IMG/VR virus record: IMGVR_UViG_3300031949_000413
Location: 41,088 to 105,087 of that record
Source: a virus
Lineage: Duplodnaviria > Heunggongvirae > Uroviricota > Caudoviricetes
DNA length: 64,000 nt
Reading direction: 5' to 3' (one strand)
The notes under the pieces were generated by a model that made no database searches, had not been told where the DNA came from, and saw only the letters and a program-made list of their open reading frames with translations. Of the stretch, positions 41-59,422 are shown piece after piece (the stretch's first letter is position 1; each line of letters starts with the position of its first letter). Position numbers and translations under genes: made by a program.

Positions 41-409
41 GGCCTGTCTCCTGTATGGCATTGTACACCCAAATGCGACTCGTTACAATAACGAGTCCAC
101 AGCAATACTGCCGATAGTACCAATATGCCATTGGCGCAGACCGTATTGTATGGTATCGTGTATCCAGACTGGTACAGTCCTACAGGGTTCGTTGTTGGCA
201 TGTCAGCCTGCGGATTGTGCCAGTTCGCACTTTCGTAACGCAATCGTAACAGTACAAAATACCTATGGACGGTTTGCTAGAAGTTTGATAAGATAACATC
301 AACAGCAACTAGGAGGACTGTTAAGCAGGCACTATACCAATTTTTGAAGTTGGATTGGCAAGTGTCTGTTTTTTCGTGTACGGAATAGGTATGAAAGGTG
401 GTGAGCGTC

Positions 410-3458: not shown

Positions 3459-3658
3459 TGTACAACAGGCTATATCAGTGGTTAGTAAAGCGTTACATAA
3501 AGATCGAGGCGTGTGGTAAGTTGTTGGTTGTTAGCATCAAGGTCGAATGGTGGTCGCCATTATGGTGGCTTTTTGCACTTATGGATATTCCGAAAGACTT
3601 AACCATAAACAGTCCACAGCACGACTGACTTGCAATTATTCAGAGAAAGTAAGATAAA

Positions 3659-5052: not shown

Positions 5053-5568
5053 ATGGATAACAAGATGTGTGGAAAGTGCAAACAAGAACTTGATGTTAGT
5101 TGCTTCTCTAAGTGCAAAAAGCAAAAGGATGGCCTGATGTATTGGTGTAAGGTGTGCATCAATACCCATACGGCTACCAGGCGCAAGCACTTGATTATAG
5201 ACCACAACATCCCTTCTAAACAGTGTAACTTGTGTCATGAAGTGAAACCAAGAAGCCGGTTCTTCTCAAGTATAGTTTCAATGGACGGTATGGTAGCCTA
5301 CTGCAAAGAGTGCTACCACGTCTGGAAGAATAACAAGGTCGTTAATAAACGTGGCATCCCGGGTACTATACACCCGCTAGAATGGAAGTCCGTGCTGTCC
5401 AAATACAGCCATACATGCCTGCGATGCGGTAGAACAAATATCCAACTTTCTATCGACCATATCGTACCCGTAAGTAATTCGCTCTGCACTAATACAATAT
5501 CCAACGTCCAACCACTATGCCACTCCTGTAACTCATCCAAAAGATGCAAAATCATAGACTATAGATAG
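5053..5568 (+). CDS. HNH endonuclease with zinc-ribbon motifs
   Basis: AGGAGACAAACA Shine-Dalgarno. Several CxxC pairs. HNH core LSIDHIVP ... NVQPLCHSCNSSK. Confidence 0.8.
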   Translation: MDNKMCGKCKQELDVSCFSKCKKQKDGLMYWCKVCINTHTATRRKHLIIDHNIPSKQCNLCHEVKPRSRFFSSIVSMDGMVAYCKECYHVWKNNKVVNKRGIPGTIHPLEWKSVLSKYSHTCLRCGRTNIQLSIDHIVPVSNSLCTNTISNVQPLCHSCNSSKRCKIIDYR

Positions 5569-7639: not shown

Positions 7640-7699
7640 CGATTGGTATCAGGTCGGTCAGGGTAATGGACTGGCGACTTGACAATAACGGAGGCTACA

Positions 7700-8775: not shown

Positions 8776-8796
8776 CAAAACACAAAGGAGAATCAT

Positions 8797-9082
8797 GTCA
8801 CAAGTGAGAATCAACAAAGTGCTGGCAACGGGTGGCACGCCAGCATATCATGAGGAAACATGCCACTACCAGGACTGGTCGAGTGAGATTGTCCGTGTAC
8901 CGGACGATCTGCCAGAGGAAATGATCGTAGTTGATTACGATGCGCCAGTGATTGACGGCGCGGCGTGGTCAATGAATGTGTGGGGCTTTGGTCATCCGCC
9001 AGAGGGACGGCAGTTGTACCGGTACGCCGGGAACTTGTCCAGTATTAGGGCCGAAATCTTCATGGGCCCGAAGGGAAGTTGA
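8797..9082 (+). CDS. hypothetical protein
   Basis: AAGGAGAATC Shine-Dalgarno before the ATG at 8797. Confidence 0.5.
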
Positions 9083-9198
9083 CATAACCCAGTGTGGCAG
9101 GATGTACGCCGGGCGGGTATGTCCGCAGTGCAAGGGCAAGCCCGTAACGCGAGTTGAAACGTGGTACGAGGGTGAACAAAAGAAAGTGAGGGCATAGC

Positions 9199-12064: not shown

Positions 12065-12309
12065 CATTCAAGGGCTAATCGAGCGCATGGCTGGTGTTCG
12101 TGAAATTCTTGAAATCGGTCTGCCAATGCCCTTCGTCATGACCTATGGCACTTTTGAGGTCAGACGAGCAACGCGGTAGCACACAGTCTAGCCAGCCCGA
12201 ACCCGTTAGGGCGGATTCGGTAGCGATACCGACATAGAGTGTAGAACGCTCGAAGGTGACGGTCGTCGTAGACCCACCGCTGGCTAGGCTGTACCAATAA
12301 AGGAGAGCA

Positions 12310-12513
12310 ATGAACGACAAACAACTTACCGAGCGTACTGAGTTCATCCGAGGAGAATACTGTGAATGCGGACATCAACATGCTATCCGTGCGTTTTACA
12401 CACCGGACGGCACACTGGGTCGCCAAGAGCCAATGATATGGGAGTCTGTTGTCAAGTCTACGTACAAGAGCTGCCCGAAATGTGGACGGTCTGTAATAGA
12501 GGAGAAGCCATGA
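12310..12513 (+). CDS. zinc-ribbon small protein
   Basis: CECGHQ ... CPKCG. Preceded by a repeated structured leader. Confidence 0.5.
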   Translation: MNDKQLTERTEFIRGEYCECGHQHAIRAFYTPDGTLGRQEPMIWESVVKSTYKSCPKCGRSVIEEKP

Positions 12514-12587: not shown

Positions 12588-12887
12588 ATGAGCAATCTTA
12601 TTAAGAGGGTGAATCAAATTGAATGGCACAGGAATGGCATTTGTGGTGTTGGTTTCTATGCTATCCTGTTCGAGACGACCGACAATGAGTTGATGGTCGC
12701 CAGTCTATATGAAGATACGGGATACTGCTCCGTATTGAGAGTAGATGATCTGTCGGATGTTGACAAAGGCGTGACATTTGGTATTAACTCATGGCGTGGT
12801 GACAACTACGAGACAGAACTTCGTGAAGCAGTCAAACGCCAGAAGTCAACCAATCGTATTGGCATATTCAGCATACCAGTAATTTGA
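12588..12887 (+). CDS. hypothetical protein
   Basis: 99-aa ORF. Confidence 0.4.
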   Translation: MSNLIKRVNQIEWHRNGICGVGFYAILFETTDNELMVASLYEDTGYCSVLRVDDLSDVDKGVTFGINSWRGDNYETELREAVKRQKSTNRIGIFSIPVI

Positions 12888-13016
12888 CAGCCTAGCCAGC
12901 CCGATCCAATTATGGCGGACACGACAGAACAGTGTCGTCAATACCGTGCAACACGCGGGAGGCCGGAGTCGCCATAGACCCGGCGCTGGATAGGCTGTAC
13001 CAATAAAGGAGACAAG

Positions 13017-13430
13017 ATGGACGAGTATCAAAACATTCATACTGGGGAAGTTGTACACATTGTCAATATAGAGCGTGTCGTCAATATTCCACCCATTCTT
13101 GTTTATGAATTGAGTGACGGTGGAAGGTGGAATATTGACGAGTTTCGCAAAAACTGGCGACCGTACAATACAGAAGCCAAAGTCTCACATTCACAACCCA
13201 GCATCAAAGGAGATAAGATGGAAGCCATTCGAGAAGAAGACAACGTATATTACAACAAAGGTGGTGGCTATGCAATGTGGTTCAAGCATGGCATCTGGAA
13301 AATGATGTACTGTGCGATGAGATTTAGCCTAATTGGAGCCACATCAATCAGATGGGAAGTGTCACAAGACGAAGCCGACCGAATCATTCAAGAATGGTAC
13401 ACGAAATCTCCTAGTCCACAGCCAGACTGA
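13017..13430 (+). CDS. hypothetical protein
   Basis: Preceded by the second copy of the structured leader, ending CCAATAAAGGAGA. Confidence 0.5.
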   Translation: MDEYQNIHTGEVVHIVNIERVVNIPPILVYELSDGGRWNIDEFRKNWRPYNTEAKVSHSQPSIKGDKMEAIREEDNVYYNKGGGYAMWFKHGIWKMMYCAMRFSLIGATSIRWEVSQDEADRIIQEWYTKSPSPQPD

Positions 13431-19957: not shown

Positions 19958-20173
19958 ATGAAGTATTTGTTGTATCAGCATGGAGAACACGAATTTACGG
20001 TATTGACGCCGCGCAGTGACACCCGCACTGGCGTATTCGTATCGGATGTTAATGCCAATACGCCGGAACATGCTGTAGAGAAGTTCCTAAAGAACGGCAC
20101 GAAGAACAGGTGGAGTGTCGGCAGAGCACAATTGGTAGCACGTGAAGTGTGGCGCGTGTCGTACAGTCGCTAG
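19958..20173 (+). CDS. hypothetical protein
   Basis: CTAGAAGGAGTG Shine-Dalgarno before the ATG at 19958. Its stop TAG lies inside the conserved intergenic motif. Confidence 0.4.
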   Translation: MKYLLYQHGEHEFTVLTPRSDTRTGVFVSDVNANTPEHAVEKFLKNGTKNRWSVGRAQLVAREVWRVSYSR

Positions 20174-20315
20174 TCTGGCTGTGGACTGGGTTATGTCTAC
20201 TCTTTTATGGGTGTGATATGTCTAAATGCAATGAAGTGGTCATGGTGATAGACGATACGCCAGTCATTACCAACAAGGGCATTCGTGGTCTGTGCGATGC
20301 ACTGTCACAATAGAG

Positions 20316-22378: not shown

Positions 22379-22573
22379 ATGAAATATCCAGAACGAATCT
22401 TCAGTGGTGACTATAGCGTCAATATGTGGGATGGCATCAATAGCGCCAAGACGATAGCCGACCTGCGCAGGGCGTTGTACTTCGTGTGTTGTCGGCTGCA
22501 AGAACTGGAAGCGAAACTAGCTGTTGAGAACGAACGTCCCAAGACGCGCAAGACGCCGAAGACTAGAAAGTAG
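22379..22573 (+). CDS. hypothetical protein
   Basis: ATG after GAGGATAGA. Its stop lies within the conserved motif. Confidence 0.4.
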   Translation: MKYPERIFSGDYSVNMWDGINSAKTIADLRRALYFVCCRLQELEAKLAVENERPKTRKTPKTRK

Positions 22574-22598
22574 TCTGGCTGTGGACTGGGTTATGTTA

Positions 22599-22624
22599 AG
22601 TGCGCTCGTGGCGCACTTTTTGTT
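22599..22624 (+). terminator. rho-independent terminator
   Basis: AGTGCGC-TCGTG-GCGCACT hairpin followed by TTTTTGTT. Confidence 0.6.
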
Positions 22625-22638: not shown

Positions 22639-22668
22639 TTGACAGGTTCTTACAACAAGTGGTAAAAT
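22639..22668 (+). promoter_or_regulatory. near-consensus sigma70 promoter (TTGACA / TAAAAT)
   Basis: TTGACA at 22639, then TAAAAT 18 nt later, then a GGAGG Shine-Dalgarno. Confidence 0.55.
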
Positions 22669-22683: not shown

Positions 22684-22875
22684 ATGAGCGACTTTATCAC
22701 CATCAAGGTCAAAAACAGAGTACGTGAAGCTTTACGAGAGGTGTCTGACATATCTCAAGAGAACTTCAGCGACATTTTGCTACGACTGCTTGAGCCGGAA
22801 GTGTCACGTGTCAAGCCGATAGCCAAGAAGGTCAAAGAGGTTCGAGCCGAATACAAAGTCCATTCGGATAAATAA
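22684..22875 (+). CDS. ribbon-helix-helix (Arc/Mnt/CopG-like) DNA-binding protein
   Basis: Beta strand FITIKV followed by two helices, RVREALREV and ENFSDILLRLLE. GGAGG lies 10 nt upstream of the ATG at 22684. Confidence 0.45.
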   Translation: MSDFITIKVKNRVREALREVSDISQENFSDILLRLLEPEVSRVKPIAKKVKEVRAEYKVHSDK

Positions 22876-24295: not shown

Positions 24296-24736
24296 ATGGC
24301 GATAGCAATTTGTGACAAGTGCCAGAAAGACGTGCTATGGTCAAACCGGCATGGTAATAAGCTGGCTGACGTGGTGACAGCGTGCTGTGGAGCATCGGCC
24401 AGAAGCAAGCCACGCAAGGCCAAATCAGAGCCAATACGGGCCAACCTGCCAAGAGCAGTGGCGCTAGTACAGCACTCGCGCACATCAATTTACCCGAACT
24501 CGGAATGGCTAGGTGAGCCACACAACACAGTCATATACCTGAAGGCAAACAACATGATCAACATTGCTGGCAAGTGGGGCGACCATGTTATAGGTGAATT
24601 GGTTGAAACGTGGCGCATCTGCCGCTACTTTGAACTCATTCATGGTGATGTGGGCTACTGGCACACAGTTCGGGTGGACGAGGACGACTACCAACGGCTA
24701 CTGAGAAAGGCACAAAGCAGTGTTCATCATTCGTAA
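24296..24736 (+). CDS. hypothetical protein with N-terminal CxxC
   Basis: Starts MAIAICDKCQKD. 146 aa. Confidence 0.45.
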   Translation: MAIAICDKCQKDVLWSNRHGNKLADVVTACCGASARSKPRKAKSEPIRANLPRAVALVQHSRTSIYPNSEWLGEPHNTVIYLKANNMINIAGKWGDHVIGELVETWRICRYFELIHGDVGYWHTVRVDEDDYQRLLRKAQSSVHHS

Positions 24737-24939
24737 CCAATACGGCTTGTACTTCTGTGGTTTTGGCCTAAACGACGCCGACTATGCGATGTGGACGGAC
24801 ATTGAAGAGAACGCACAGCGAGTAGACGAGGAAGACACCTACACCCTCCACAAGCTAGACCAGTTAGGATACAGGTTTGCGCTCATTCGGGCGCAGTAAA
24901 GAGTAGACATAACCCAGTCCACACGGATACTGGAATGCA

Positions 24940-26982: not shown

Positions 26983-28476
26983 ATGGACATTCAGGAGGTT
27001 GATATGGCTGACACGGAAGAAATCATTGATGGCGAAGTAGGATCACTGGCACTTGTGCCTACTATTGAAGCCCCTCTGGTTACACAAGGCGAAGATGTAT
27101 TCCACGGCCTATCGGTAGCCCCCATTACGGCTCAGCAGACAGCCGTTGTTCTATGCGAGGCCAACCCGGACGAGCTGGACATCCTACCCACTGGAGAGGT
27201 ATATCCCCCACAAGTCAATGTGCGCCTACGGCTCATTGAGGCATTCGGCCCAGCGGGTTGGGGAATGCGCCCATTATCAAAGCCCCACATCACAGAAAAT
27301 GTCGTAGTTCAAGAATGGGCATTGTACATCAACGGCAACTTTGTATCATACACTATTGGTGGAGCCGAGTACCAGTCTGGAAACAAGCGCCTGAACTGGT
27401 CGGATGCTCTGGAGTCTCTGAAGTCTAACGCTCTGGTAAGATTGTGCAAAGACTTGGGCATGTTCCATGAGTGCTGGGACAAGCATTGGGTTGACGAGTG
27501 GAAACGCAAGTATACCGTGAATGTATGGTGCAAGGTTAAGACGTGGGAGAAGGGAGTGGAAGTATTCAAGAACAAGACCCAGTGGCGCAGGGCTGACGCC
27601 CGTCCGCTGTGGAATGAGACTGGTATTGCCAAAGACTCTCCCAACAAGGACAAATACGTTGCACCCTCCGGTGGAGTAGTAGACCCAGAGACGGGTGAGA
27701 TTATTGATAGCAAGGCTGGTAGCAGGCAGTCTACCAAAGCACCAGTCACACCGTCGAAGGCAGATATTAAAGATAATGGTCAACCGCCCAAAGAGCCAGC
27801 ACCAGTCACGCCTGCTCACAAACCAATCATACCAGCGACTAAGGCTGAACCTGTACCAGAGCCAACGACTGCACAAGAGCCAGCCAAGACGAATGCTATC
27901 ACGGTAAGCATCTGGAACGGTACGACCATGAGTGAGAAACCAGCATTGGAGGCCATTGACGAGAAGGCCAAGAACTGGTTTGTGGGTAAGTTCATTGGTA
28001 AAGACAAGTTATGGGAATATGCGCCTGCCTTCTGGGGATCGGATAAATCAGACGATAAAGGCAAGGTCAACCCTGGTCATTTAGGCAAGCACTTTGGACG
28101 CCACAACCTAATCGATCCGAAGAGCCCGTTCACCTACGACCAATTTGCAAGTCTGGTGGGTTACTGCTGGCACAAACTGGGCGACCCGCACGGCTGGCTC
28201 GATCCTAGATACTATCAGGACAAGATAGACGAAGAAGCGAAGAAGGTTGCTAAAGACACCGACAGCGCGCGCACTGACCCAAATGCGATTGTCACCCGCG
28301 CCTCGCTGATGCTTATCCCCATTGTCAAGATCGCCAAAGATGCCTATGCTGTGGAATGGCAAGAACTGGACACAGCACGGTTAGAGTCATTGTCTACTCT
28401 GCTGGATATGGTAGAGTCGGGTAAGGTAGGACGTGAGGATTTTGATAAGATGATCGATATGCTGAAGGCGGGCTAA
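26983..28476 (+). CDS. Rad52/Mgm101-like single-strand annealing protein with Pro-rich linker and unknown C-terminal domain
   Basis: NWSDALESLKSNALVRLCKDLGMFHECWD resembles the Rad52 DALKRALRxFGNxLG helix. Low-complexity PPKEPAPVTPAHKPIIPATKAEP tract. Confidence 0.35.
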   Translation: MDIQEVDMADTEEIIDGEVGSLALVPTIEAPLVTQGEDVFHGLSVAPITAQQTAVVLCEANPDELDILPTGEVYPPQVNVRLRLIEAFGPAGWGMRPLSKPHITENVVVQEWALYINGNFVSYTIGGAEYQSGNKRLNWSDALESLKSNALVRLCKDLGMFHECWDKHWVDEWKRKYTVNVWCKVKTWEKGVEVFKNKTQWRRADARPLWNETGIAKDSPNKDKYVAPSGGVVDPETGEIIDSKAGSRQSTKAPVTPSKADIKDNGQPPKEPAPVTPAHKPIIPATKAEPVPEPTTAQEPAKTNAITVSIWNGTTMSEKPALEAIDEKAKNWFVGKFIGKDKLWEYAPAFWGSDKSDDKGKVNPGHLGKHFGRHNLIDPKSPFTYDQFASLVGYCWHKLGDPHGWLDPRYYQDKIDEEAKKVAKDTDSARTDPNAIVTRASLMLIPIVKIAKDAYAVEWQELDTARLESLSTLLDMVESGKVGREDFDKMIDMLKAG

Positions 28477-29370: not shown

Positions 29371-29613
29371 ATGGCTAAGAAAACAGACAATCTTATCGAA
29401 ATGCTACAGCGACGTTTTGGCTACTTCCCATTACGGTTCAAGTGGCAAGGCAAGGAATACCATGTTGAGTCAGTAGAACGCTGTAGAACGACTATTGGCC
29501 CACGAACCAGGCGATTTTCGCGCCACTACTTTGATGTTCGTTGTACTGAAGGGACTTATAGTCTGTATCAAGACCTAGAGACGATGACGTGGCACATGGG
29601 CAACAAGGCATGA
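29371..29613 (+). CDS. hypothetical protein
   Basis: 80-aa ORF. Confidence 0.4.
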   Translation: MAKKTDNLIEMLQRRFGYFPLRFKWQGKEYHVESVERCRTTIGPRTRRFSRHYFDVRCTEGTYSLYQDLETMTWHMGNKA

Positions 29614-29816
29614 ACGGTAGAACGCTGATGGCCTATCGGTTCATCAAGAATTACACTGCCATGTATGACATTCCACCGAAGTACGACGAGATCGCACAGG
29701 CCATTGGAGTATCAGGACGAAGTGTGGTCTCGTATCATGTTGACAAGCTGGTAGAGATGGGCCTGGCTGAAAAGACGGACGGCAAACGCCGAACGGTTCA
29801 TATCATACCTAAATAG
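29610..29816 (+). CDS. LexA-N-terminal-like winged-helix DNA-binding protein
   Basis: PPKYDEIAQAIGVSGRSVVSYHVDKLVEMGL fits the LexA-family winged-helix pattern. Confidence 0.5.
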   Translation: MNGRTLMAYRFIKNYTAMYDIPPKYDEIAQAIGVSGRSVVSYHVDKLVEMGLAEKTDGKRRTVHIIPK

Positions 29817-30799: not shown

Positions 30800-30964
30800 A
30801 TGGACAACATCTACTGGCTCTGCAAGAACTGCGATAAGACTGTTATGGTGTACCATAAGCGTGTTCAACATGGTGACGTGCTAGAATGTCCTGAGTGTGG
30901 CGTGTATACCACTTTCGTATTCTCGTATTCCGAACCATTGCAAGTCAGTCCAGACGCAGACTAG
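30800..30964 (+). CDS. zinc-ribbon small protein (54 aa)
   Basis: CKNC ... CPECG. Start overlaps the upstream stop. Below the ORF-track cutoff. Confidence 0.4.
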   Translation: MDNIYWLCKNCDKTVMVYHKRVQHGDVLECPECGVYTTFVFSYSEPLQVSPDAD

Positions 30965-31556
30965 AAGTAAGTACCCATTTCCTATAGACTTATCGGGCAA
31001 CTTCGTGTAAGATAGCAGTCAGGTAGTGGGGTGTAGTTGACCAGCCTGCCCTGACCGGGTAAAACCACTATAGTTCACCCATTGATCACAAGAAAAGGTA
31101 GCCGATGTCTCTGCACAAACGATGAAGCGCAGACCGCCGTGTATGTGGATGGAGAGATGGAATACTATGTCCATTCAGAAGTCCAGCACCGTTATGACGC
31201 CGATACGGTGTGACGCACACAAGCCCAAATGGGAGCATTGTGTGTATCTGGGGCAGATAACCATCATCGGTGGTGGGAAACACATACATGGTGTTCTGCG
31301 AAACATCGCAGGGGTAGGCGCAACGAGCGTAACAGGCGTAATACGGCCACTTGAGTGGCACGATAGACTAGCGGGTTCGATACCCCACCGTTGCTAATAG
31401 AGGACACTGAGAGTGACTAACTTAGGAAGAGCCGGATAAAGAGTCTAGGTCATCAAAATGAAGTCCCCGGCACGTCCGCCAGTACGCTGAACTGGCACTT
31501 ACTTGACCATAAACAGTCCACAGCCATACTGAGGGTAGTACCAAAGGAGAAATGAA

Positions 31557-32665: not shown

Positions 32666-32707
32666 AGTAATGTTGACATCTTATCAGGAATAACTTACAA
32701 TAGGCAC

Positions 32708-32932
32708 ATGATGAACAGAATACAGTGGCAACTCAAGAAAGAATATGAACTCGCCGTGAGTGACACGGAGAGTATAAACGGACGTGGAGGCAGGAGTTCA
32801 CTAGAGTCTAATTCTGGTCAGCCTGTCAGTGAAGCGTCAACCAAGAGAAACTGGGATACGAAAACATCGGCCAACAGCCCATTAGGGCATACTATGGTCG
32901 CGCCTGATACCGAGGTCGCTATGGAAGGGTAG
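32708..32932 (+). CDS. hypothetical protein
   Basis: 74-aa ORF with a weak Shine-Dalgarno. Confidence 0.25.
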   Translation: MMNRIQWQLKKEYELAVSDTESINGRGGRSSLESNSGQPVSEASTKRNWDTKTSANSPLGHTMVAPDTEVAMEG

Positions 32933-33003: not shown

Positions 33004-33171
33004 ATGAAAACATTTGTGGTGTCATTTAATGAGGCTGGTGGTGAATACGTAGGGCATCTGACAGTGAGATGTAAAACCTTGAGGCTGTCAGAGAAGGACA
33101 ACAAGACATTCTCGGCTGATGGGGTTATCATTACCATAGACGAGAAGATCATCAATGTAGTAGAACTTTAG
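33004..33171 (+). CDS. hypothetical small protein
   Basis: ATG after GGAGCATA within ORF 32938..33171. Confidence 0.3.
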   Translation: MKTFVVSFNEAGGEYVGHLTVRCKTLRLSEKDNKTFSADGVIITIDEKIINVVEL

Positions 33172-33246
33172 GGGGCATAGCTCAGTCCGGTTCAGAGCAG
33201 ATGCTTGTCAAGCATAAGGTCGTGGATTCAAATTCCACTGTCCCCG
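33171..33246 (+). tRNA. tRNA-Asp (GTC)
   Basis: Acceptor GGGGGCA/TGTCCCC. D-arm GCTCAGT ... GAGC. Anticodon loop TTGTCAA. T-arm GTGGA-TTCAAAT-TCCAC. Confidence 0.6.
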
Positions 33247-33250
33247 CCTT

Positions 33251-33323
33251 GCTCACAAAGTTCAGATGGTGGAACATATCTTTGGTAAAGATAAGGTCGG
33301 GGATTCGAGCGCCCCTGTGAGCT
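33251..33323 (+). tRNA. tRNA-Thr (GGT)
   Basis: Acceptor GCTCACA/TGTGAGC. Anticodon stem TATCT/AGATA with loop TTGGTAA. Confidence 0.5.
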
Positions 33324-33327
33324 CATG

Positions 33328-33410
33328 GCTGGTGTACGCAACTGATATGACGAAGCTCACTTAAAATGAGTGCCCGACAGGGCGTGTGGGTTTGAATCCC
33401 ACCACCAGCA
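33328..33410 (+). tRNA. tRNA-Leu (TAA), long variable arm
   Basis: Acceptor GCTGGTG/CACCAGC. Loop CTTAAAA. Variable stem GCCC/GGGC. T-arm GTGGG-TTTGAAT-CCCAC. Confidence 0.5.
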
Positions 33411-33441
33411 CAGACTGTTGGCTCTTTAATAATTGAATGTC

Positions 33442-33514
33442 GCCGTGATCGTACAAACGGAAAGTACACTGCCCCTGTAAGGCAGGGATGTGGGATCATA
33501 CTCCACTCATGGCT
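33442..33514 (+). tRNA. tRNA-Thr (TGT), non-canonical (C33, T-loop ATCATAC)
   Basis: Acceptor GCCGTGA/TCATGGC. D-stem GTAC/GTAC. Anticodon stem CTGCC/GGCAG with loop CCTGTAA. Confidence 0.35.
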
Positions 33515-33518
33515 CTAG

Positions 33519-33591
33519 GCGGGTATAGTTCAATTGGTAGAGCGCGACTCCTCCAAAGTCGAGACGACGGGATCGTACCCCGCTACCCGCT
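33519..33591 (+). tRNA. tRNA-Gly (TCC), C33
   Basis: Acceptor GCGGGTA/TACCCGC. D-arm TAGTTCAATTGGTAGAGC. Anticodon stem CGACT/AGTCG with loop CCTCCAA. Confidence 0.5.
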
Positions 33592-33592
33592 C

Positions 33593-33663
33593 TCCCCGAT
33601 AGCACAGCGGAAGTGTACTGCACTCGTAACGCAGAGACGCCAGATCAAGACTGGTTCGGGGAT
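33593..33663 (+). tRNA. tRNA-Thr (CGT)
   Basis: Acceptor TCCCCGA/TCGGGGA. Loop CTCGTAA. T-arm GCCAG-ATCAAGA-CTGGT. Confidence 0.4.
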
Positions 33664-33677
33664 CATGGAGGGTACAA

Positions 33678-33862
33678 TGGTAAAGGCATTGAAGTCAAAG
33701 ACAGCTGAAGACAGAGCCAAGCATTTTCTGGCAGAGTTATTGGACGAGACATTGGATTGGTCATGTACAGACACCCAGCATGAATTGGCATACGCCCTGA
33801 AGGAAATTCTGGAAGATTACTGTCCCGATTGGATAGACCCCTATCGGGTCAGCGAAGAATGA
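33678..33862 (+). CDS. hypothetical small protein embedded in the tRNA island
   Basis: ATG at 33678 after GGAGGG (MVKALKSKTAEDRAKHF ...). The longer ORF-track frame 33488.. overlaps tRNAs and is rejected. Confidence 0.4.
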
Positions 33863-33864
33863 AT

Positions 33865-33953
33865 GCTCAGTAGGCGACTATCGGTTGGTCGCATGGCGCT
33901 GTAGACGCCATCCACTAAAAAGGCGTGGTCGGGTTCGACTCCCACACTGAGCA
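33865..33953 (+). tRNA. tRNA-Tyr (GTA), long variable arm
   Basis: Acceptor GCTCAGT/ACTGAGC. Anticodon stem TGGCG/CGCCA with loop CTGTAGA. Variable stem CCAC/GTGG. T-loop TTCGACT. Confidence 0.5.
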
Positions 33954-33957
33954 CTAT

Positions 33958-34030
33958 GGGTCGTTAGCTCATTTAGGAGAGCACTGCACCTGCAATGCAG
34001 AGGCGACTGGAGCAAAGCCAGTACGATCCA
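33958..34030 (+). tRNA. tRNA-Ala (TGC), C33, atypical T-loop
   Basis: Acceptor GGGTCGT/ACGATCC. D-arm TAGCTCATTTAGGAGAGC. Anticodon stem CTGCA/TGCAG with loop CCTGCAA. Confidence 0.45.
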
Positions 34031-34033
34031 CAT

Positions 34034-34109
34034 GCCGACGTGACGGGAACCAAGTATACCTACCTGCCTCAAAAGCAGGTGCTTACCGGCGCAAATCCGG
34101 TCGTCGGCA
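34034..34109 (+). tRNA. tRNA-like, anticodon CAA (Leu?), short variable arm, poor D-arm
   Basis: Acceptor GCCGACG/CGTCGGC. Anticodon stem CCTGC/GCAGG with loop CTCAAAA. T-arm ACCGG-CGCAAAT-CCGGT. Confidence 0.3.
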
Positions 34110-34115
34110 CTTGAT

Positions 34116-34188
34116 ACGGGTGAAGCCGAAGAAGATAGGCGACGATCTCCAAAATCGTTAGTAGCAGGCGCACGTCCTGCCACCCGTG
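34116..34188 (+). tRNA. tRNA-Trp (CCA)
   Basis: Acceptor ACGGGTG/CACCCGT. Anticodon stem ACGAT/ATCGT with loop CTCCAAA. Confidence 0.5.
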
Positions 34189-34337
34189 CCTAATGGCTCT
34201 AGTGCCACATGACCCATCTATCGGGTGTCAAGTGATTTCATCTTACAATATGAAATAGTAAACAAGTTGTGTCTGTGTGCCCAGAGTGGAGAGAAGCGAG
34301 CACTGAAACTCCTACAGAGACGGCTAGAACCATGAAT

Positions 34338-34409
34338 GCCAGTGTAGCTCAATGGATGAGCGACAAGTTTCTACCTTGTAGGATGAGAGTTCGACCCTCT
34401 CCACTGGTA
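34338..34409 (+). tRNA. tRNA-Arg (TCT)
   Basis: Acceptor GCCAGTG/CACTGGT. D-arm TAGCTCAATGGATGAGC. Anticodon stem ACAAG/CTTGT with loop TTTCTAC. T-arm GAGAG-TTCGACC-CTCTC. Confidence 0.7.
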
Positions 34410-34410
34410 C

Positions 34411-34485
34411 TGCGCGGTGAGCTGGAGTAGTCCCAGCAGCGGCCTCATAAGCCGAATGACGTGGTTGCAAATACCACCCGCGCTA
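34411..34485 (+). tRNA. tRNA-Met (CAT) (approximate ends)
   Basis: D-stem GCTG/CAGC. Loop CTCATAA. T-arm GTGGT-TGCAAAT-ACCAC. Acceptor GCGCGG/CCGCGC. Confidence 0.4.
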
Positions 34486-34621
34486 CCTATGCAAGACACA
34501 GCTTAAGATGTGTCGAGCAGAACGGCTGTGTAAATGGTCGTATCGCCATTACGTCTCAAACGGATAGAGCGCGGCTCTGCGGAGGCCGAGGCAGTCGGCT
34601 CAACACCGGCATCGGGTACTT

Positions 34622-34708
34622 GGAGTAGTAGCGATAGTTGGCATTCGCGCCTGACCTGCTAAGTCAGCGCCCCGCAAGGGGTTGGCAGATCGTCACTGCC
34701 CTACTCCG
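34622..34708 (+). tRNA. tRNA-Ser (GCT), long variable arm
   Basis: Acceptor GGAGTAG/CTACTCC. Anticodon stem CTGAC/GTCAG with loop CTGCTAA. Variable hairpin CCCC-GCAA-GGGG. Confidence 0.55.
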
Positions 34709-34888
34709 CCTTCCGCACGAGGGAATATCCTTCCTCTGGCATACGGGAGTCTCATCGTTAAGGAACTCTAGTTCCGTTGGTAGGCCGTAAGACCTTTGAG
34801 ACCGTGCGGAGCCGAGAGTCCAATCGCTAAGACGTGGATATGCGCGGGCCACACTCGGTAGCGGGACGGGACACACCCGCTAAAATAT

Positions 34889-34961
34889 GGTGTCTGAACC
34901 CAAACGGTGCGGGGAATGCCTGTGGAGCATTTATTAGCCAGTTCGACTCTGGTCTGACACC
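34889..34961 (+). tRNA. tRNA-His (GTG) with extra 5' G(-1)
   Basis: G(-1) plus GTGTCTG paired with CTGACAC-C. Anticodon stem AATGC/GCATT with loop CTGTGGA. T-arm GCCAG-TTCGACT-CTGGT. Confidence 0.55.
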
Positions 34962-35028
34962 CTCGGTAGAGTGGGGGCTAAAGGTGAGGCTACCACAAGA
35001 ACGCCAAAATCTGCCCACTCTGCCCCAC

Positions 35029-35100
35029 AGGGCATTGGTCAACCAGCGAAGACGCAAGGTTTTCAACCTTGAAGGGTCGGGCCAGCACCGACATGCCCTA
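35029..35100 (+). tRNA. tRNA-Glu (TTC)
   Basis: Acceptor AGGGCAT/ATGCCCT. Anticodon stem CAAGG/CCTTG with loop TTTTCAA. T-arm GTCGG-GCCAGCA-CCGAC. Confidence 0.45.
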
Positions 35101-35105
35101 TTGAT

Positions 35106-35190
35106 GGCAGGTTGGCAGAGAGGCTTATCGCGGCGCTCCTGAAAAGCGTTAGGGATTACACCCACACTCGTTCAAATCGAGTACCTGCCT
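35106..35190 (+). tRNA. tRNA-Ser (TGA), long variable arm, C33
   Basis: Acceptor GGCAGGT/ACCTGCC. Loop CCTGAAA. T-arm ACTCG-TTCAAAT-CGAGT. Confidence 0.5.
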
Positions 35191-35193
35191 CTT

Positions 35194-35264
35194 GCTACCG
35201 AAGTGAAACGGTTCATGACGGACTTTTAATCCGTTCGGACAGAGTTCGACTCTCTGCGGTAGCA
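35194..35264 (+). tRNA. tRNA-Lys (TTT)
   Basis: Acceptor GCTACCG/CGGTAGC. Anticodon stem ACGGA/TCCGT with loop CTTTTAA. T-arm CAGAG-TTCGACT-CTCTG. Confidence 0.65.
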
Positions 35265-35267
35265 CTT

Positions 35268-35339
35268 GGGTTGCGAGCTTGGATGGTTAAGCATCCGCCT
35301 CTTAAGCGGAAGAGAGGGATTCGAGTTCCCTGCGACCCA
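35268..35339 (+). tRNA. tRNA-Lys (CTT)
   Basis: Acceptor GGGTTGC/GCGACCC. D-stem GCTT/AAGC. Anticodon stem TCCGC/GCGGA with loop CTCTTAA. T-arm AGGGA-TTCGAGT-TCCCT. Confidence 0.65.
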
Positions 35340-35429
35340 CATGGCAAACCGATGTCATTACCGCACTGGGAATAACCCAGTGAGTCGGATCGGGATGGAG
35401 GAGGGCGCATTCCTAAATAACGTCCACCA

Positions 35430-35503
35430 CGGGGACAGGTGTATAAGGATTGCACACGCGCCCTGGGAGCGCGAGGCAGCCGATTCGATTTCGGCGTCCC
35501 CGA
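35430..35503 (+). tRNA. tRNA-Pro (TGG), C1:G72, C33
   Basis: Acceptor CGGGGAC/GTCCCCG. Anticodon stem CGCGC/GCGCG with loop CCTGGGA. T-arm GCCGA-TTCGATT-TCGGC. Confidence 0.55.
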
Positions 35504-35506
35504 CCT

Positions 35507-35577
35507 TGCCCTGTCGTATAAAGGTAGTACACAACACTCTGGATGTTGGGGAAGTGGATCAGTACCACTCAGGGCAG
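35507..35577 (+). tRNA. tRNA-Gln (CTG), U1:A72
   Basis: Acceptor TGCCCTG/CAGGGCA. Anticodon stem CAACA/TGTTG with loop CTCTGGA. T-arm AGTGG-ATCAGTA-CCACT. Confidence 0.45.
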
Positions 35578-35581
35578 CTTT

Positions 35582-35653
35582 GCAGACGCCATATCCCGGT
35601 GGATATGCCACTCCGATAAGGTGGTCAAGATGGCTCAACTCCATCCGTCTGCA
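35582..35653 (+). tRNA. tRNA-Ile (GAT), C33
   Basis: Acceptor GCAGACG/CGTCTGC. Anticodon stem CCACT/GGTGG with loop CCGATAA. T-arm GATGG-CTCAACT-CCATC. Confidence 0.5.
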
Positions 35654-35657
35654 CTAT

Positions 35658-35729
35658 GCGGGAGTAGCTTAATGGTAGAGCGCATCATCGCCAATGATGT
35701 AGGTGTCAGTTCAAATCTGATTTCCCGCC
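35658..35729 (+). tRNA. tRNA-Gly (GCC)
   Basis: Acceptor GCGGGAG/TTCCCGC. D-arm TAGCTTAATGGTAGAGC. Anticodon stem CATCA/TGATG with loop TCGCCAA. T-loop TTCAAAT. Confidence 0.6.
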
Positions 35730-35823
35730 CTGTGTCATTCGGGCAGTTAGAGGCTGCACCCATTATAGCGGATACGTAGCCGTTGATGGGCATAGACTGG
35801 GGCGACAACGAATGACCCTAAAT

Positions 35824-35898
35824 ACCCTCGTCGCCTAATTGAATATGGCACTTGGTTTCGACCCAAGCACAATGAGAGTTTGAATCTCTCCGAGGGTT
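35824..35898 (+). tRNA. tRNA-Arg (TCG)
   Basis: Acceptor ACCCTCG/CGAGGGT. Anticodon stem CTTGG/CCAAG with loop TTTCGAC. T-arm GAGAG-TTTGAAT-CTCTC. Confidence 0.5.
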
Positions 35899-35905
35899 CT
35901 AAAAT

Positions 35906-35979
35906 TGCTACGTAGCTCAAGTGGCCGAGCGCCTGACCGTTAATCAGGATACATGCTGGTTCAAGTCCAGTCGTAGCAG
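35906..35979 (+). tRNA. tRNA-Asn (GTT), C33
   Basis: Acceptor TGCTACG/CGTAGCA. D-stem GCTC/GAGC. Anticodon stem CCTGA/TCAGG with loop CCGTTAA. T-arm GCTGG-TTCAAGT-CCAGT. Confidence 0.55.
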
Positions 35980-35983
35980 CTAT

Positions 35984-36066
35984 GCCGGTGTACTCGAATT
36001 GGCAACAGAGAGCAGTCTTAGAAACTGCTTCCGCAAGGATTGGAGGTTCGACCCCTCTCACCGGCA
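35984..36066 (+). tRNA. tRNA-Leu (TAG), long variable arm
   Basis: Acceptor GCCGGTG/CACCGGC. Anticodon stem GCAGT/ACTGC with loop CTTAGAA. T-arm GGAGG-TTCGACC-CCTCT. Confidence 0.55.
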
Positions 36067-36071
36067 CTGAT

Positions 36072-36144
36072 GGAACACTAGGCGAATTGGAAAGCCGTCA
36101 CATCCTCACTGTGAAGATTGCGGGATCGAGGCCCGCGTGTTCCA
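36072..36144 (+). tRNA. tRNA-Glu (CTC), C33
   Basis: Acceptor GGAACAC/GTGTTCC. Anticodon stem TCACA/TGTGA with loop TCCTCAC. T-arm GCGGG-ATCGAGG-CCCGC. Confidence 0.4.
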
Positions 36145-36149
36145 CTAAT

Positions 36150-36224
36150 GCCTCTATCGGTCAATTGGTTAGACCATCTTCCTTACAAGAAGAAACAGTG
36201 GTGGATCGTACCCACCTAGAGGCA
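36150..36224 (+). tRNA. tRNA-Val (TAC)
   Basis: Acceptor GCCTCTA/TAGAGGC. Anticodon stem TCTTC/GAAGA with loop CTTACAA. T-arm GGTGG-ATCGTAC-CCACC. Confidence 0.55.
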
Positions 36225-36227
36225 CAC

Positions 36228-36300
36228 GCCGCTTTCGTATAGCTGGTCTGTATGCAGCACTGAAAATGCTGAGGTCTCGGATCGTCACCGAGGGGCGGCA
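36228..36300 (+). tRNA. tRNA-Phe (GAA)
   Basis: Acceptor GCCGCTT/GGGCGGC (two G-T pairs). Anticodon stem CAGCA/TGCTG with loop CTGAAAA. T-arm CTCGG-ATCGTCA-CCGAG. Confidence 0.45.
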
Positions 36301-36303
36301 CAC

Positions 36304-36376
36304 ACGGGAAGGTAGGGGCGATTCCCCTAGCGAGTCTTATAAGCCCGCAATCGTGGTCTGACTCCACGTTCCCGTA
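36304..36376 (+). tRNA. tRNA-like, anticodon TAT (Ile?), weak anticodon stem
   Basis: Acceptor ACGGGAA/TTCCCGT. T-arm CGTGG-TCTGACT-CCACG. Loop CTTATAA. Confidence 0.3.
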
Positions 36377-36381
36377 CTCGT

Positions 36382-36453
36382 GCTCCCGTAGCATAATCGG
36401 TAATGCACTGGTCTTTGGAACCGGGCAACTACGTTCAAATCGTGGCGGGAGTG
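36382..36453 (+). tRNA. tRNA-Gln (TTG)
   Basis: Acceptor GCTCCCG/CGGGAGT. D-stem GCAT/ATGC. Anticodon stem CTGGT/ACCGG with loop CTTTGGA. T-arm CTACG-TTCAAAT-CGTGG. Confidence 0.55.
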
Positions 36454-36456
36454 CCT

Positions 36457-36658: not shown

Positions 36659-36661
36659 CAT

Positions 36662-36735: not shown

Positions 36736-36755
36736 CATATAGTTTGAAAGGACTG

Positions 36756-37283
36756 ATGATGACCGCCGCAATTTTGCTACTGAATGCTGACTATACTCCC
36801 ATTCGGGTGATGAACCTGAACAGGGCGCTATCGTTGATATTCAAGGATAGGGTAGACTTGGTACAAGATGTGCCGGGCAAACAATTGAGATCGCCTAGCA
36901 CTACTTTGCCATTCCCGTCTATATTGCGCCTAAAAAGATACGTGAATGTACCCAGACGCGGTGTAACCTGGTCAAGACGAGCCGTATTCGCTCGTGATGG
37001 CTACCGGTGCGTGTATTGCAACGAGAAACTTGACAGAGATACGGCGACACTAGACCATCTAACACCCCGCGATACCTGTTCCAAGATGGGTATTCGCGCA
37101 TCGACCTTCGGTAATTCCGTTTGCTCTTGTGGTCGATGCAATAGGAGAAAGAGTAACCGTAGCCTAGAGGATAGCGGTATGCGGTTCTACGACCCGGCCT
37201 ACACACCGAAGATTCCGAGAGTCAACTACGTTGTGTTATCTGGCGAAATTCCAACAGAGTGGCGAGCTTACATCAGGTTGTAG
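36756..37283 (+). CDS. HNH endonuclease (McrA/terminase-associated type)
   Basis: ATG after AAAGGACTG. YRCVYCNEKL ... LDHLTPR ... CSCGRCNRRKSN. The ORF-track frame beginning at 36600 overlaps two tRNAs and is trimmed. Confidence 0.75.
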   Translation: MMTAAILLLNADYTPIRVMNLNRALSLIFKDRVDLVQDVPGKQLRSPSTTLPFPSILRLKRYVNVPRRGVTWSRRAVFARDGYRCVYCNEKLDRDTATLDHLTPRDTCSKMGIRASTFGNSVCSCGRCNRRKSNRSLEDSGMRFYDPAYTPKIPRVNYVVLSGEIPTEWRAYIRL

Positions 37284-37635
37284 TCAGTATCCGTGTGGAC
37301 TCCGTTATGTAACGAGTACCCGATAGTACAAAACTATCATTGCAGTCCCTATAGATGGTGATATAATGACTACTGACTCGTGGCACGAATTCCACCGTCC
37401 TTCGGGTGCATGGCGATGTCTACGGTCACAGGGCAGGCGCGAACGAATCGAGGATGGGTAATGCAGCGGAGTCGCTGGTATGGCTGTGACTAGCCAGCGA
37501 CAAGAGCATAGAGTCTGGTATCTAATTGTACAAGAAGGCGGACTCTTGCGGGACAATCCCGCTAGACCGGTGAGGCGCGATAGGCCATCGTGCTGAGGTT
37601 TATGGCAGAACAACCCATTCGATTCCGACGTTATA

Positions 37636-44528: not shown

Positions 44529-45022
44529 TCAACTACAGCCCCATGATGGCGATATTGTCAAAGAGTGATCTAGCTTTAATGGTATCACACACTCACACAA
44601 GCAATTCTTGAACAGTCTCCGCAGTCTTGCTGTGGACTGACTTTGCTGTAATTCTACACATTCGTAGCCTTGCTGCGCCCACGTGCGCCACTCTGCGCCA
44701 ATGCGAGCTATCAGCCTAGCATCCCATGTCTCTTCAGGTCTAACATCGAATATCCAGTTACCATGACATTGGTTGCGCCCGAAATGCCATGCCATGTCAT
44801 AGGCATTAGGCTCTTTCGGCCAGATGAAGTCGAACACCCGTGCTGTAGGATAATCTCGTGCCAATTCATCGGCCAGGCGCATCGTCTCCATATCCCGTGA
44901 TGGGTCTACCAGTATGACAGCACTATCGGCAATGACTATAGTAGACGCGAAACTACCCAATAGGCGCAGTGTAGGTGTATCACGCCATACATATAAGTTG
45001 GTTAGTTCAAGCTGTCTTACCA
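44529..45022 (-). CDS. hypothetical protein
   Basis: GTG start overlaps the tail-fibre stop (GTGGTAA). ORF-track frame is 44529..45134. Confidence 0.35.
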
Positions 45023-56318: not shown

Positions 56319-56360
56319 AATTTACCAACTTAACATAACCCAGTCCACAGACAGACTAGA

Positions 56361-56813
56361 TCATTGTTGTTCGTTGCGCTTCTTGCGCTTCTCTTTCATA
56401 TCGGCTATCCACTTATCGACACGCTTCTGGTCGTGCCAGAACTCTTTAGGCACTTCTTTGTCATAGCCCTCAACATCATCATCGCCATACATCCCGCTAA
56501 TTTCCTGTATCTGTTCCCAGCGTCGTTCTGAGAACAGCGCATACGTCCATACCCACGGCCATCTCTCAGCCGGTAGGTGACTCGGTGCTACCTGTAGCGT
56601 CTTTGTCCACCCCACCAGCAACCCCCGCAGACTCGCTTTTGGTAATCTCCCACGGGTCAATGGAGTCCATTTCCTTGTAGAGCTTATAGAGCCTATCAAT
56701 GACTGGCATAGGCATCTGGTGAATGTCGTCCACTGTTTTCCAATGTTTCTTGCCGTCCGACTCAATCGAACACCAGACTGTGTAGTACACATCGGAGTCC
56801 TGCGACATGGCAT
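56361..56813 (-). CDS. frameshift extension of the tail assembly chaperone (GT-like, +1 frame)
   Basis: This frame is open across the 3' end of the 57303..56566 ORF (248-nt overlap). It lies +1 relative to the upstream frame and ends just before the tape measure gene. Confidence 0.4.
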   Translation of the reverse strand: MPCRRTPMCTTQSGVRLSRTARNIGKQWTTFTRCLCQSLIGSISSTRKWTPLTRGRLPKASLRGLLVGWTKTLQVAPSHLPAERWPWVWTYALFSERRWEQIQEISGMYGDDDVEGYDKEVPKEFWHDQKRVDKWIADMKEKRKKRNEQQ

Positions 56814-58507: not shown

Positions 58508-59422
58508 GTGACAGAAGTCCTAGAAACCAGTCTCAAATTCAAGGGCAACAAATTCTCGAAAACATACGGCGGAATGTCCGTATCGTTGTGCATGGCATAT
58601 TGCCTGAGTAATGGATACACCGTCAGCTATCCTCTATTCGATGATGCACGATATGATCTGATTGCTGACATTGATAATAGTCTAAAGAGAATCCAGTGCA
58701 AAACAGCTATGGTGTTCTCATACAAGCAGATCAGGTATCCCAGAATCAAGCTACATCATGGCTCCCAGTCGTCATACGGTCGATCTGATTTCGATCTACT
58801 ATGGGTTATCACACAACAACATGCCTACTTGATCCCAATAGACAAAATTCCAACTGTTGACGATCAACTGGTAGAAATAGTCTTATCGCCAAAGTTTAAT
58901 ACCTATATAGTCGATATGCCATTTCTGACAGGTCAAGACCCCAAACGAACTCTCGAAACAATGAACCTTACCGATAAAGAGCGTGCTAGAATAGCCTCTC
59001 TGTTCAGACTTGGTGATACCTCTGAAGATATAGCCATGACAATGGGACTCAAACATTCTCAAGTTAGTGGCTATCTAGCCAGCGCAAAGATTGTCAAAGA
59101 GCATTTTGTGACTGATGATATAAAGTCCAAAATTGTCGAACTGTATAAATCCGGGATAGAGGTCAAGAAAATATCCCATCAAGTCAATTTCTCAAGAGCA
59201 TTAGTCACCCAAGTCATAACCGATTCTGGCACAGAACTTAGGAGAAAAACTGCTATACATCCAGAATGGAAACAGACCATTGTCGAAATGTATGTTAAAG
59301 GTCAGAAACCACAAGAAATAGCAAAATACTTCGGAATAAGACGCCCTAATGCTATCTCGGCATTTCTCAATAAGCACAAGTGGCTCATAGACGAGACTCG
59401 CCAAAAACTAGGTCTTACATAG
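58508..59422 (+). CDS. homing-endonuclease-like protein: N-terminal nuclease-like domain plus three C-terminal helix-turn-helix repeats
   Basis: Only + strand gene inside the - strand structural operon. N-terminus YDLIADID ... KRIQCK ... SDFDLLWVI (PD-(D/E)xK-like). C-terminus has three sigma-r4-like HTH units (DIAMTMGLKHSQVSGYL, KISHQVNFSRALVTQVI, EIAKYFGIRRPNAISAFL). Confidence 0.4.
   Translation: MTEVLETSLKFKGNKFSKTYGGMSVSLCMAYCLSNGYTVSYPLFDDARYDLIADIDNSLKRIQCKTAMVFSYKQIRYPRIKLHHGSQSSYGRSDFDLLWVITQQHAYLIPIDKIPTVDDQLVEIVLSPKFNTYIVDMPFLTGQDPKRTLETMNLTDKERARIASLFRLGDTSEDIAMTMGLKHSQVSGYLASAKIVKEHFVTDDIKSKIVELYKSGIEVKKISHQVNFSRALVTQVITDSGTELRRKTAIHPEWKQTIVEMYVKGQKPQEIAKYFGIRRPNAISAFLNKHKWLIDETRQKLGLT

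Follow-up and report, generated by a model that had tools for sequence, protein, structure and literature searches.

A dispersed two-module intergenic motif, probably regulatory, in the genome of an uncultured tailed phage

A motif of 30-36 bp was found about 16 times, in either orientation, in the 83 kb that we read of an uncultured tailed phage genome (11 full copies and about five partial ones). A regulatory role is probable; the motif does not resemble stoperators, and its promoter-like features are located on the strand opposite to the one first read. The original prediction, made from the window (the whole stretch of 64,000 nucleotides analysed here), had suggested either phage-specific middle or late promoters or the stoperators of a temperate phage. 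The data agree with a cis-regulatory site used genome-wide by a phage-specific factor, while the stoperator and the promoter on the strand first read both fail on points that were tested.

The sequence of the window was also present on two other contigs, one from ENA (k141_3973986, 126,055 bp) and one of 63.5 kb from Logan, and all fetched pieces were 100% identical to the window and collinear with it. As calculated from locus offsets, the ENA contig repeats about 2.2 kb at its two ends, so the genome can be considered to be about 124 kb long and circular or terminally redundant. The 83 kb read comprise the window and 19 kb of flanking sequence (L027 and L022, whose positions are given below with these names). 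The direction of the genes is rightward between about 410 and 37283 and leftward past 37688, and 23-25 tRNA genes are located at 33171-36736. Canonical TTGACA/TATAAT promoters and GGAG ribosome-binding sites occur in the phage, which also encodes several homing-type nucleases. Through megablast against 50,697 GenBank phage records we found no nucleotide match to the phage, and through tblastn against the same records no match to its capsid or its Mgm101-like protein. The phage is a member of an unstudied lineage.

The frequency of the motif is far above chance. An 18-mer core (CTGTGGACTGGGTTATGT) gave five matches with at most three mismatches, compared with 0.06 expected, and none of 100 shuffles gave five. 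Scored with a weight matrix of 36 columns, the full copies reached 35-49 bits and the best site of shuffled sequence 13.8; eight full copies are within the window and three in the flanking sequence. The matrix and core scans recovered all eight sites that had been listed before, each within a few bases of where it had been placed. Seven of them, described as clear, were full copies; the eighth, described as more diverged, consisted of the left module only, at 44622-44639. The matrix scan that had been suggested as a check, run over the 83 kb, also revealed a new full copy at 78-113 (minus strand) and further partial copies in the window, and more copies in the flanks. The positional bias was borne out as well: the core (at least 23 of 25 bases) was non-coding in ten of the 11 full copies, in a sequence whose non-coding share is 11.5%. 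The only full copy without a non-coding core, at 3595, overlaps a 57-aa gene call that is doubtful and also spans a terminator.

The motif is composed of two modules, an 18-bp pseudo-palindrome called L (CAGTMTnnSTGTGGACTG) and a second element called R (kkTTATGTyAAGT) at a fixed distance from L. Module L is asymmetric, with an invariant half (GTGGACT) and a weak half (AGTMT), and in one copy it forms the perfect dyad AGTCCA-TGTG-TGGACT. The invariant columns are AGT at 5-7, TGTGGACT at 13-20, T at 24 and GT at 28-29, and near-invariant positions adjoin them. Conserved blocks (columns 5-7, 12-20, 24, 28-29 and 31-34) recur every 10-13 bp or so, and the TTAT block slides by 1 nt among the copies with the total length kept constant; this recurrence together with the fixed length is as expected for contacts on one face of the DNA. 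Eleven core positions are strictly invariant across the 11 copies and the flanks are free. Left and right sequence variants occurred in mixed combinations among the copies, which fits selection site by site and not recent copying. Module L was found without R at 13412-13429 and 44622-44639. At L027:5804-5834, L is the reverse complement of the L of the 31499 copy (17 of 18 bases) and the R beside it matches at 15 of 15 bases, indicating that L can be flipped relative to R. A flipped or lone L is tolerated by a dyad-binding protein and not by a fixed promoter or RNA.

The full copies and the features beside them are listed here.

78..113, minus strand: full copy, score 35.7, of the subtype ending GTAACGAGT, missed in the original prediction; a 232-aa zinc-ribbon gene running leftward and the early block running rightward diverge on either side of it, and the -35 of a promoter-like site directed leftward (TTGTAA-17-TACAAT) is overlapped by the 3' part of the copy
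3595..3630, minus strand: full copy, 26 nt past a plus-strand terminator (3556-3569 and a T run) and 28-40 nt ahead of the next plus-strand gene (ATG at 3659 or 3671); the doubtful overlapping gene call is 3455-3628 (57 aa)
20168..20203, plus strand: full copy at the end of gene 19958-20173, whose TAG forms motif columns 4-6; the next gene starts at 20316
22568..22603, plus strand: full copy at the end of gene 22379-22573, whose TAG is within the motif; the motif 3' end merges into the terminator hairpin 22598-22618
22639-22668: promoter TTGACA-18-TAAAAT after the 22568 copy, serving gene 22684-22875
24900..24935, minus strand: full copy occupying the 52-bp gap from the TAA of gene 24720-24899 to the gene that opens the helicase/recombinase block, with its ribosome-binding site and ATG (24952)
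24904-24931, reverse strand of the 24900 copy: promoter-scan match TAGACA-16-GATACT
31499..31534, minus strand: full copy immediately past the hairpin 31479-31497 and 22 nt before ATG 31557 (Band_7 lipoprotein gene)
31503-31530, reverse strand of the 31499 copy: promoter-scan match TTGACC-16-CATACT
37282..37317, plus strand: full copy of the GTAACGAGT subtype, directly next to the TAG of the HNH gene 36759-37283, where the plus and minus gene blocks converge
37341-37368: promoter TTGCAG-16-TATAAT, 23 bp past the 37282 copy, the apparent driver of a non-coding RNA of about 310 nt
56326..56361, minus strand: full copy filling the 42-bp gap from the tail-chaperone stop (TAG in the motif) to the tape measure ATG at 56318; a 12-pair RNA hairpin is possible with the flanks, in this copy only
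L027:771-806 (minus strand), L027:2912-2947 (plus strand) and L022:6691-6726 (minus strand): full copies outside the window

The partial copies are the following.

L027:5804-5834: copy with flipped L, outside the window
13412..13429, minus strand: L-only copy CAGTCTGGCTGTGGACTA on the TGA of ORF 13017-13430, 33 nt before ATG 13462; no minus-strand ORF was found behind it
44622..44639, plus strand: L-only copy within the called gene 44529-45056 (minus strand), 136 nt downstream of the recombinase gene
30946..30963, minus strand: degenerate L-like copy TAGTCTGCGTCTGGACTG over the TAG of gene 30800-30964, scoring 20.9 compared with a shuffle maximum of 18.5
9063..9093, minus strand: R-only copy GGGTTATGTCAACT at the end of gene 8795-9082, with R at 9077-9090 (score 17.7, below the shuffle maximum of 19.1 and weak taken alone), followed by a degenerate, apparently flipped L
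7677-7690: R-like piece
62837-62859: partial copy

The stretches 20180-20205 and 24898-24923 are identical at 26 of 26 bases.

Full copies are usually flush with a stop or a start codon, five on the plus and six on the minus strand. Tabulated against transcription, four were forward, five reverse and two in divergent regions (L027:2912 and 78), with no orientation rule. The forward copies (20168, 22568, 37282 and 56326) are located on or beside the stop codon of the upstream gene, and in 20168, 22568 and 56326 the TAG is inside the motif, as had been noticed before. Each of the reverse copies (L027:771, 3595, 24900, 31499 and L022:6691) precedes a gene; from the motif edge to the ATG there are 12-22 nt in three of the five, 28-40 nt at 3595 and 134 nt at L022:6691. 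Gene starts at 3659/3671, 24940/24952 and 31557 closely following copies, the terminator hairpin right after the 22568 copy and the tape measure ATG beside the 56326 copy were all found as originally described.

In all three divergent regions of the early block (L027:2912, L027:5804 and 78), the leftward gene has a copy at its 5' end. Little besides the motif is contained in three intergenic gaps, which measure 42-52 bp. Three strong canonical promoters (22639-22668, 37341-37368 and L022:6758-6786) are each accompanied by a copy, with its centre around -76 to -90 relative to the expected start. In total, copies are carried at the 5' ends of seven to ten transcription units, and four copies are at gene ends. 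The distance from site to regulated start ranges from 4 to about 300 nt, and with such a spread one protein would need several modes of action.

Our leading reading is a tentative one, with nearly an even chance of being right: the motif may be the orientation-tolerant site of one phage-encoded DNA-binding regulator, serving as a weak promoter-operator before genes and as a roadblock, insulator or upstream site elsewhere. What we observed are the copies, how they are built and placed, the absence of an orientation rule and the restriction to one lineage; we infer the binding of a protein, its identity and the sign of the regulation. One sequence-specific and probably phage-encoded protein would bind all the sites, which would mark the boundaries of transcription units and jointly form a regulon. 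Directly before a gene, the site would be a promoter-operator, where the bound protein would turn initiation off or on. On a stop codon or in a tight operon junction, the bound protein would be a roadblock or an insulator; alternatively, a copy at a gene end might be the upstream site for a neighbouring canonical promoter. This reading is supported by the copy statistics, the placement, the copies in divergent regions, those at about -76 to -90 and those flagged by the promoter scan described below. A point against it is the strong asymmetry of L: a simple dimer would not usually have one half of its site invariant and the other under hardly any constraint.

Another point against it is that among about 140 genes only two candidates for a DNA-binding regulator were found, both putative binders of the motif.

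29610..29816, plus strand: small winged-helix protein of 68 aa, with LexA_DNA_bind at 24.5 bits (cut-off 23.7) and a match to the lexA N-terminus
58508..59422, plus strand: protein of 304 aa with a PD-(D/E)XK nuclease (I-Ssp6803I-like) and three tandem HTH (Cbp1-like, T5 D5-like)

The original prediction had named two possible repressors. One of them is the winged-helix protein 29610-29816, and the other, 22684-22875, has no credible DNA-binding domain. Besides 29610-29816, no repressor-like family was found in about 60 proteins searched with Pfam, PHROGs, NCBIfam or precomputed Pfam. The proteins encoded beside copies (232-aa zinc-ribbon, 73-aa, 563-aa and 117-aa) had no family or PDB match. 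The gene 58508-59422 is on the opposite strand within the late block and has its own promoter (TTGATT-17-TATAAT).

Promoter hexamers were absent from the strand originally read, and were found only on the reverse complement, with a -35 TTGACa in R, a strict 16-bp spacer containing AGTCCACAG and a -10 nAtACT within L, in its weak half. The A and C of TTGACa are invariant, A(-11) is present in 9/11 and T(-7) in 11/11 copies, T(-12) is missing, and the invariant AGTCCACAG is at about -22 to -14. The copies could be middle or late promoters on the reverse strand, used by the host RNA polymerase with a phage activator or sigma-like factor recognising AGTCCACAG; transcripts would start about 7 nt past nAtACT, and the four backward copies would give antisense or priming transcripts. 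We consider this reading unlikely as a whole, although part of the data suits it. Four of the 11 copies were flagged by a sigma-70 scan (24904-24931, 31503-31530, L022:6695-6722 and L027:2943-2916), each pointing to the adjacent gene, and the chance of such a match for a random motif was estimated at about 1-2% from the background rate of the scan tool. In the reverse-strand sense, 7/11 full and 3/3 left-module copies face the next gene, and in five full copies an ATG follows about 8-32 nt past the -10. The order at 3595 is terminator, motif and gene, and the three 42-52-bp gaps are too small for any other promoter. Against this, the 10/14 co-directional copies are not a significant excess (binomial p ~0.09), and four full copies (20168, 22568, 37282 and 56326) point backward into the 3' end of the upstream gene, with no hidden minus-strand genes found behind them. 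Hexamer matches were 9/12 in four of the 11 copies and 6-8/12 in the remainder, and the quality was equal in facing and backward copies (mean 8/12 in each group). The copy with flipped L lacks the promoter layout, and in the 83 kb examined we saw no gene for a sigma factor or an RNA polymerase. Considering the backward copies, the equal hexamer quality and the break of layout by the flipped L, a pure promoter reading covers only part of the data. The stoperator reading fared worse. L5-type stoperators would be bound in the lysogen of a temperate phage by an immunity repressor, which would sit on all copies and block the elongating polymerase; dispersed copies in short intergenic gaps, several over stop codons, a lineage-specific motif and a tyrosine recombinase gene are consistent with this, and we still judge it improbable. 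Stoperators are predominantly in one orientation relative to transcription (PMC6550527), whereas the tabulated copies are unbiased (4 to 5, and 2 divergent), and the motif has two modules and 30-36 bp instead of 13-14 bp. No immunity repressor gene was recognised in the 83 kb examined. The integrase of the original prediction is indeed a tyrosine recombinase, but it is Xer-like and falls under every NCBIfam cut-off. The genome of about 124 kb, the 23-25 tRNA genes and the several homing-type nucleases give the phage a virulent look, and a search of 185,579 representative genomes revealed neither a prophage copy nor a related motif.

The motif might also be the site of a phage nuclease, nickase or recombinase (candidates are 58508-59422 and the Xer-like recombinase), used for nicks, for module recombination boundaries or for replication priming, and we give this a small chance. 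With its length of about 30 bp, its asymmetry and its three conserved blocks, the site would suit a monomer with three HTH domains, the nuclease motif (D...QxK) of 58508-59422 aligns with that of I-Ssp6803I in a phage rich in homing-type nucleases, and copies are exactly on gene junctions. T5, phiKMV-like and tf phages do have conserved motifs at nick sites, but those are on one strand (PMC3517423) and the copies here are on both (five plus, six minus). The arms are too short and resemble no core site of Xer, Cre or dif. Two independent assemblies were identical and collinear at all copies, and therefore gave no sign of inversion or deletion, and more than 11 targets in its own genome would demand extra control of a cutting enzyme. 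There is a slim chance that 58508-59422 is a homing-endonuclease-type protein recruited to bind the approximately 16 sites, or to nick them on either strand, with one HTH per conserved block, thereby punctuating transcription units; if true, the whole genome would be punctuated in a way that differs from known operators and from nick systems restricted to one strand. A miniature selfish or copied repeat (MITE or REP-like), or a module-boundary sequence without regulatory role, is very unlikely. It would account for the identity of 20180-20205 with 24898-24923, which reaches beyond the core, for the stop codon of the upstream ORF being supplied by three copies in the same register and for the hairpins often abutting the R side, yet terminal inverted repeats, target-site duplications and a transposase are lacking, the left and right variants are reshuffled between copies, and no copies were found elsewhere in the public collections searched. 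The invariant core positions with their free flanks indicate selection on sequence. An RNA-level hairpin, be it a terminator, attenuator, processing site or CRISPR-repeat mimic, is largely refuted and hardly credible. L can be folded (CAGUC...GACUG), some copies were listed by a scan as weak terminator-like sites, and the 56326 copy with its flanks folds well (z = -4.2); the 20168 copy, on the other hand, folds like shuffles (z = -1.1), compensatory changes were seen in 0/6 L pairs, and pair 8-17 is broken in 6/13 copies. The motif occurs in both orientations relative to transcription, had no Rfam match, CRISPR repeat families included, and formed no array in any genome searched.

Two capsid homologues, L023 (65% identity) and L030 (59%), both span the structural region only, and searches for helicase and Mgm101 homologues revealed only short or distant contigs, including L031 (52% helicase identity). 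The motif is absent from L030 and L031, both relatives being compared by DNA. In L023 we found only two R-like traces: GAACTGGTTATGTAAC just upstream of the tape measure gene, in the position and orientation of the 56326 copy, and TTGGACTCGTTATG at the start of the first head gene. The pattern G[GA]ACT[GC][GC]TTATGT, which was picked post hoc, is expected about 0.005 times in the L023 locus. These traces suggest that the element is old at one or two late positions, and that its spread and exact sequence are phage-specific.

A degenerate 26-nt pattern fitting all copies had one unrelated match each in JGI metagenome contigs and in 185,579 genomes; the chance matches of the genome and metagenome scans were a 35% GC archaeal MAG and eukaryote-like DNA. 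Neither exact nor degenerate motifs gave more than single chance matches in IMG/VR, JGI metagenomes and GTDB genomes. A host repeat or CRISPR repeat was rejected on the single unrelated matches of the degenerate-pattern scans. We also rejected a likeness of TTATGTTAAGT to TTATGTTAAAT, a dif/XerD-arm sequence: the XerC arm and the central region are lacking, and most copies differ. The DnaA box, sigma-54, ECF sigma, LexA, NtcA and integron attC sites had only 4-7 matching bases each. As far as the compared sequences indicate, the lineage-specific spread is the behaviour of co-evolving protein-site pairs. Repressor-operator pairs show rapid, lineage-specific turnover (PMC6550527).

Returning to the regulator-site reading, the motif is the clearest handle on gene grouping and switching in this phage, marking about 16 unit boundaries, and it predicts one master DNA-binding factor. 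If the binder were identified, it would provide a site/factor pair with an orientation-tolerant, two-module target of about 30 bp, and could reveal one site as promoter, operator and roadblock. In relatives, a cognate variant (e.g. GRACTSGTTATGT) that changes in step with a single protein would point to the binder. As a category, dispersed regulatory motifs specific to a phage are familiar, and the result is useful for annotation rather than surprising.

Several known systems can be compared. The MotA-dependent middle promoters of T4 combine a factor box at -30 with a sigma-70 -10 element. On its reverse strand, the motif would likewise combine a weak host-type -10 with an invariant phage-specific upstream element, before replication and recombination blocks. 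However, its invariant box is in the spacer (-22 to -14), 4/11 copies point away from any gene, and within the 83 kb examined we recognised nothing like the genes for MotA/AsiA. The PeSLs of T4-type phages consist of co-directional early promoters followed by a stem-loop, at the borders of gene modules. They resemble the motif as a repeated intergenic unit beside hairpins at module borders, one that could promote module shuffling; here, in contrast, the orientation is mixed and the hairpins are outside the conserved unit. T7-type promoters were rejected, the orientation being mixed in either sense and no RNA polymerase domain having been found in the 83 kb examined.

The nick motifs of T5, phiKMV-like and tf phages have 7-20 bp and occur on one strand only (PMC3517423). 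They too have about ten or more dispersed copies that co-evolve with the phage, and T5 is also similar in genome size and tRNA content, whereas the copies here are on both strands and confined to intergenic DNA. Cluster A stoperators (L5 gp71 type) number 20-30 copies of 13-14 bp (PMC6550527, PMC9283540). They share with the motif the short intergenic gaps, often at stop codons, and a lineage-specific consensus that changes between relatives. Apart from length and orientation, the present case differs in that the host uses sigma-70 consensus promoters and the phage is unrelated.

The nearest analogy in logic is with the dispersed C1 operators of P1, an asymmetric 17-bp site in 22 dispersed copies (PMC8546580). 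The motif differs in being about twice as long, in its two modules and in having several copies at gene ends, and in the 83 kb examined we saw neither a C1-like repressor nor plasmid-prophage functions. Both large phage genomes contain many dispersed copies of an asymmetric site, in P1 before separate operons and here, for part of the copies, before what may be separate transcription units. In P1 one protein coordinates all of the operators, and by analogy we might speculate that the same holds for the motif described here.

Further features were located in the window and in the flanking sequence of the same phage (L022 and L027), as follows.

2576-2809: Acb2/Tad1-like anti-defence gene
5053-5568 and 36759-37283: two HNH nucleases
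12183-12326 and 12887-13025: duplicated intergenic blocks of ~130 bp (85-93% identity)
26983-28476: Mgm101/Rad52-like annealing protein
32748-32842 and 62815-62909: inverted repeat pair of about 95 bp, antisense to local genes
37341-37695 (+): candidate gene for a ~310-nt non-coding RNA, located where the two gene blocks converge
43521-44486: Xer-like tyrosine recombinase within the tail region, with its own promoter
58508-59422 (+): free-standing nuclease-HTH gene among the tail and head genes
L022:6758-6850 (-), corresponding to roughly 67047-67139 in window numbering: sigma-70 promoter and terminator hairpin upstream of the first head gene
L022:7666-8478: DUF559/Vsr-like nuclease
L027:8502-9200 (-), ending at window position 40: leftward 232-aa gene beside the copy at 78 of the phage-specific intergenic motif

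The tRNA array (33171-36736) contained 23 genes by ARAGORN and another two by Rfam, and a promoter, TTGACA-17-TACAAT, was predicted upstream of it at 32673-32701. What looks like a non-coding RNA gene at the convergent junction has a TG-extended promoter (TTGCAG-16-TATAAT), a terminator hairpin and a 3' end similar to a tRNA T-arm and acceptor stem. Its predicted fold gave z = -2.5, and neither ARAGORN nor Rfam gave a match.

The nuclease-HTH gene lies on the strand opposite to the surrounding block and has its own predicted promoter; its product fuses an I-Ssp6803I-like PD-(D/E)XK nuclease with three HTH domains, and the HTH region is similar to archaeal CRISPR-repeat-binding Cbp1 and to T5 D5-like regulators. 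The 232-aa gene, in a cI-like position adjoining the motif, encodes an acidic coiled-coil protein with a C4 zinc ribbon, which matched no family or PDB entry and could be a regulator.

The two ~95-bp repeat copies share 81-85% identity. Since each is antisense to the genes around it and has a -35-like box, TTGACG, as well as a CTCTCCGTG...CACGGCGAG hairpin, the two may constitute paired small units of antisense transcription. The second copy also includes a shortened motif-like piece (62837-62859). The ~130-bp blocks are located upstream of small paralogous genes whose proteins start with MN(N/D)(E/K)Q.

Before the first head gene, the strong predicted sigma-70 promoter (TTGACA-17-TATTAT) is followed immediately on its 3' side by the terminator hairpin, which is very stable (-22 kcal/mol, z = -4.8). 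The same arrangement is kept in two relatives, at L023:7729-7810 (65% capsid identity) and L030:8163-8256 (59%). This conserved layout suggests that the late operon of the phage is under antitermination control in the style of lambda pR'/tR'.
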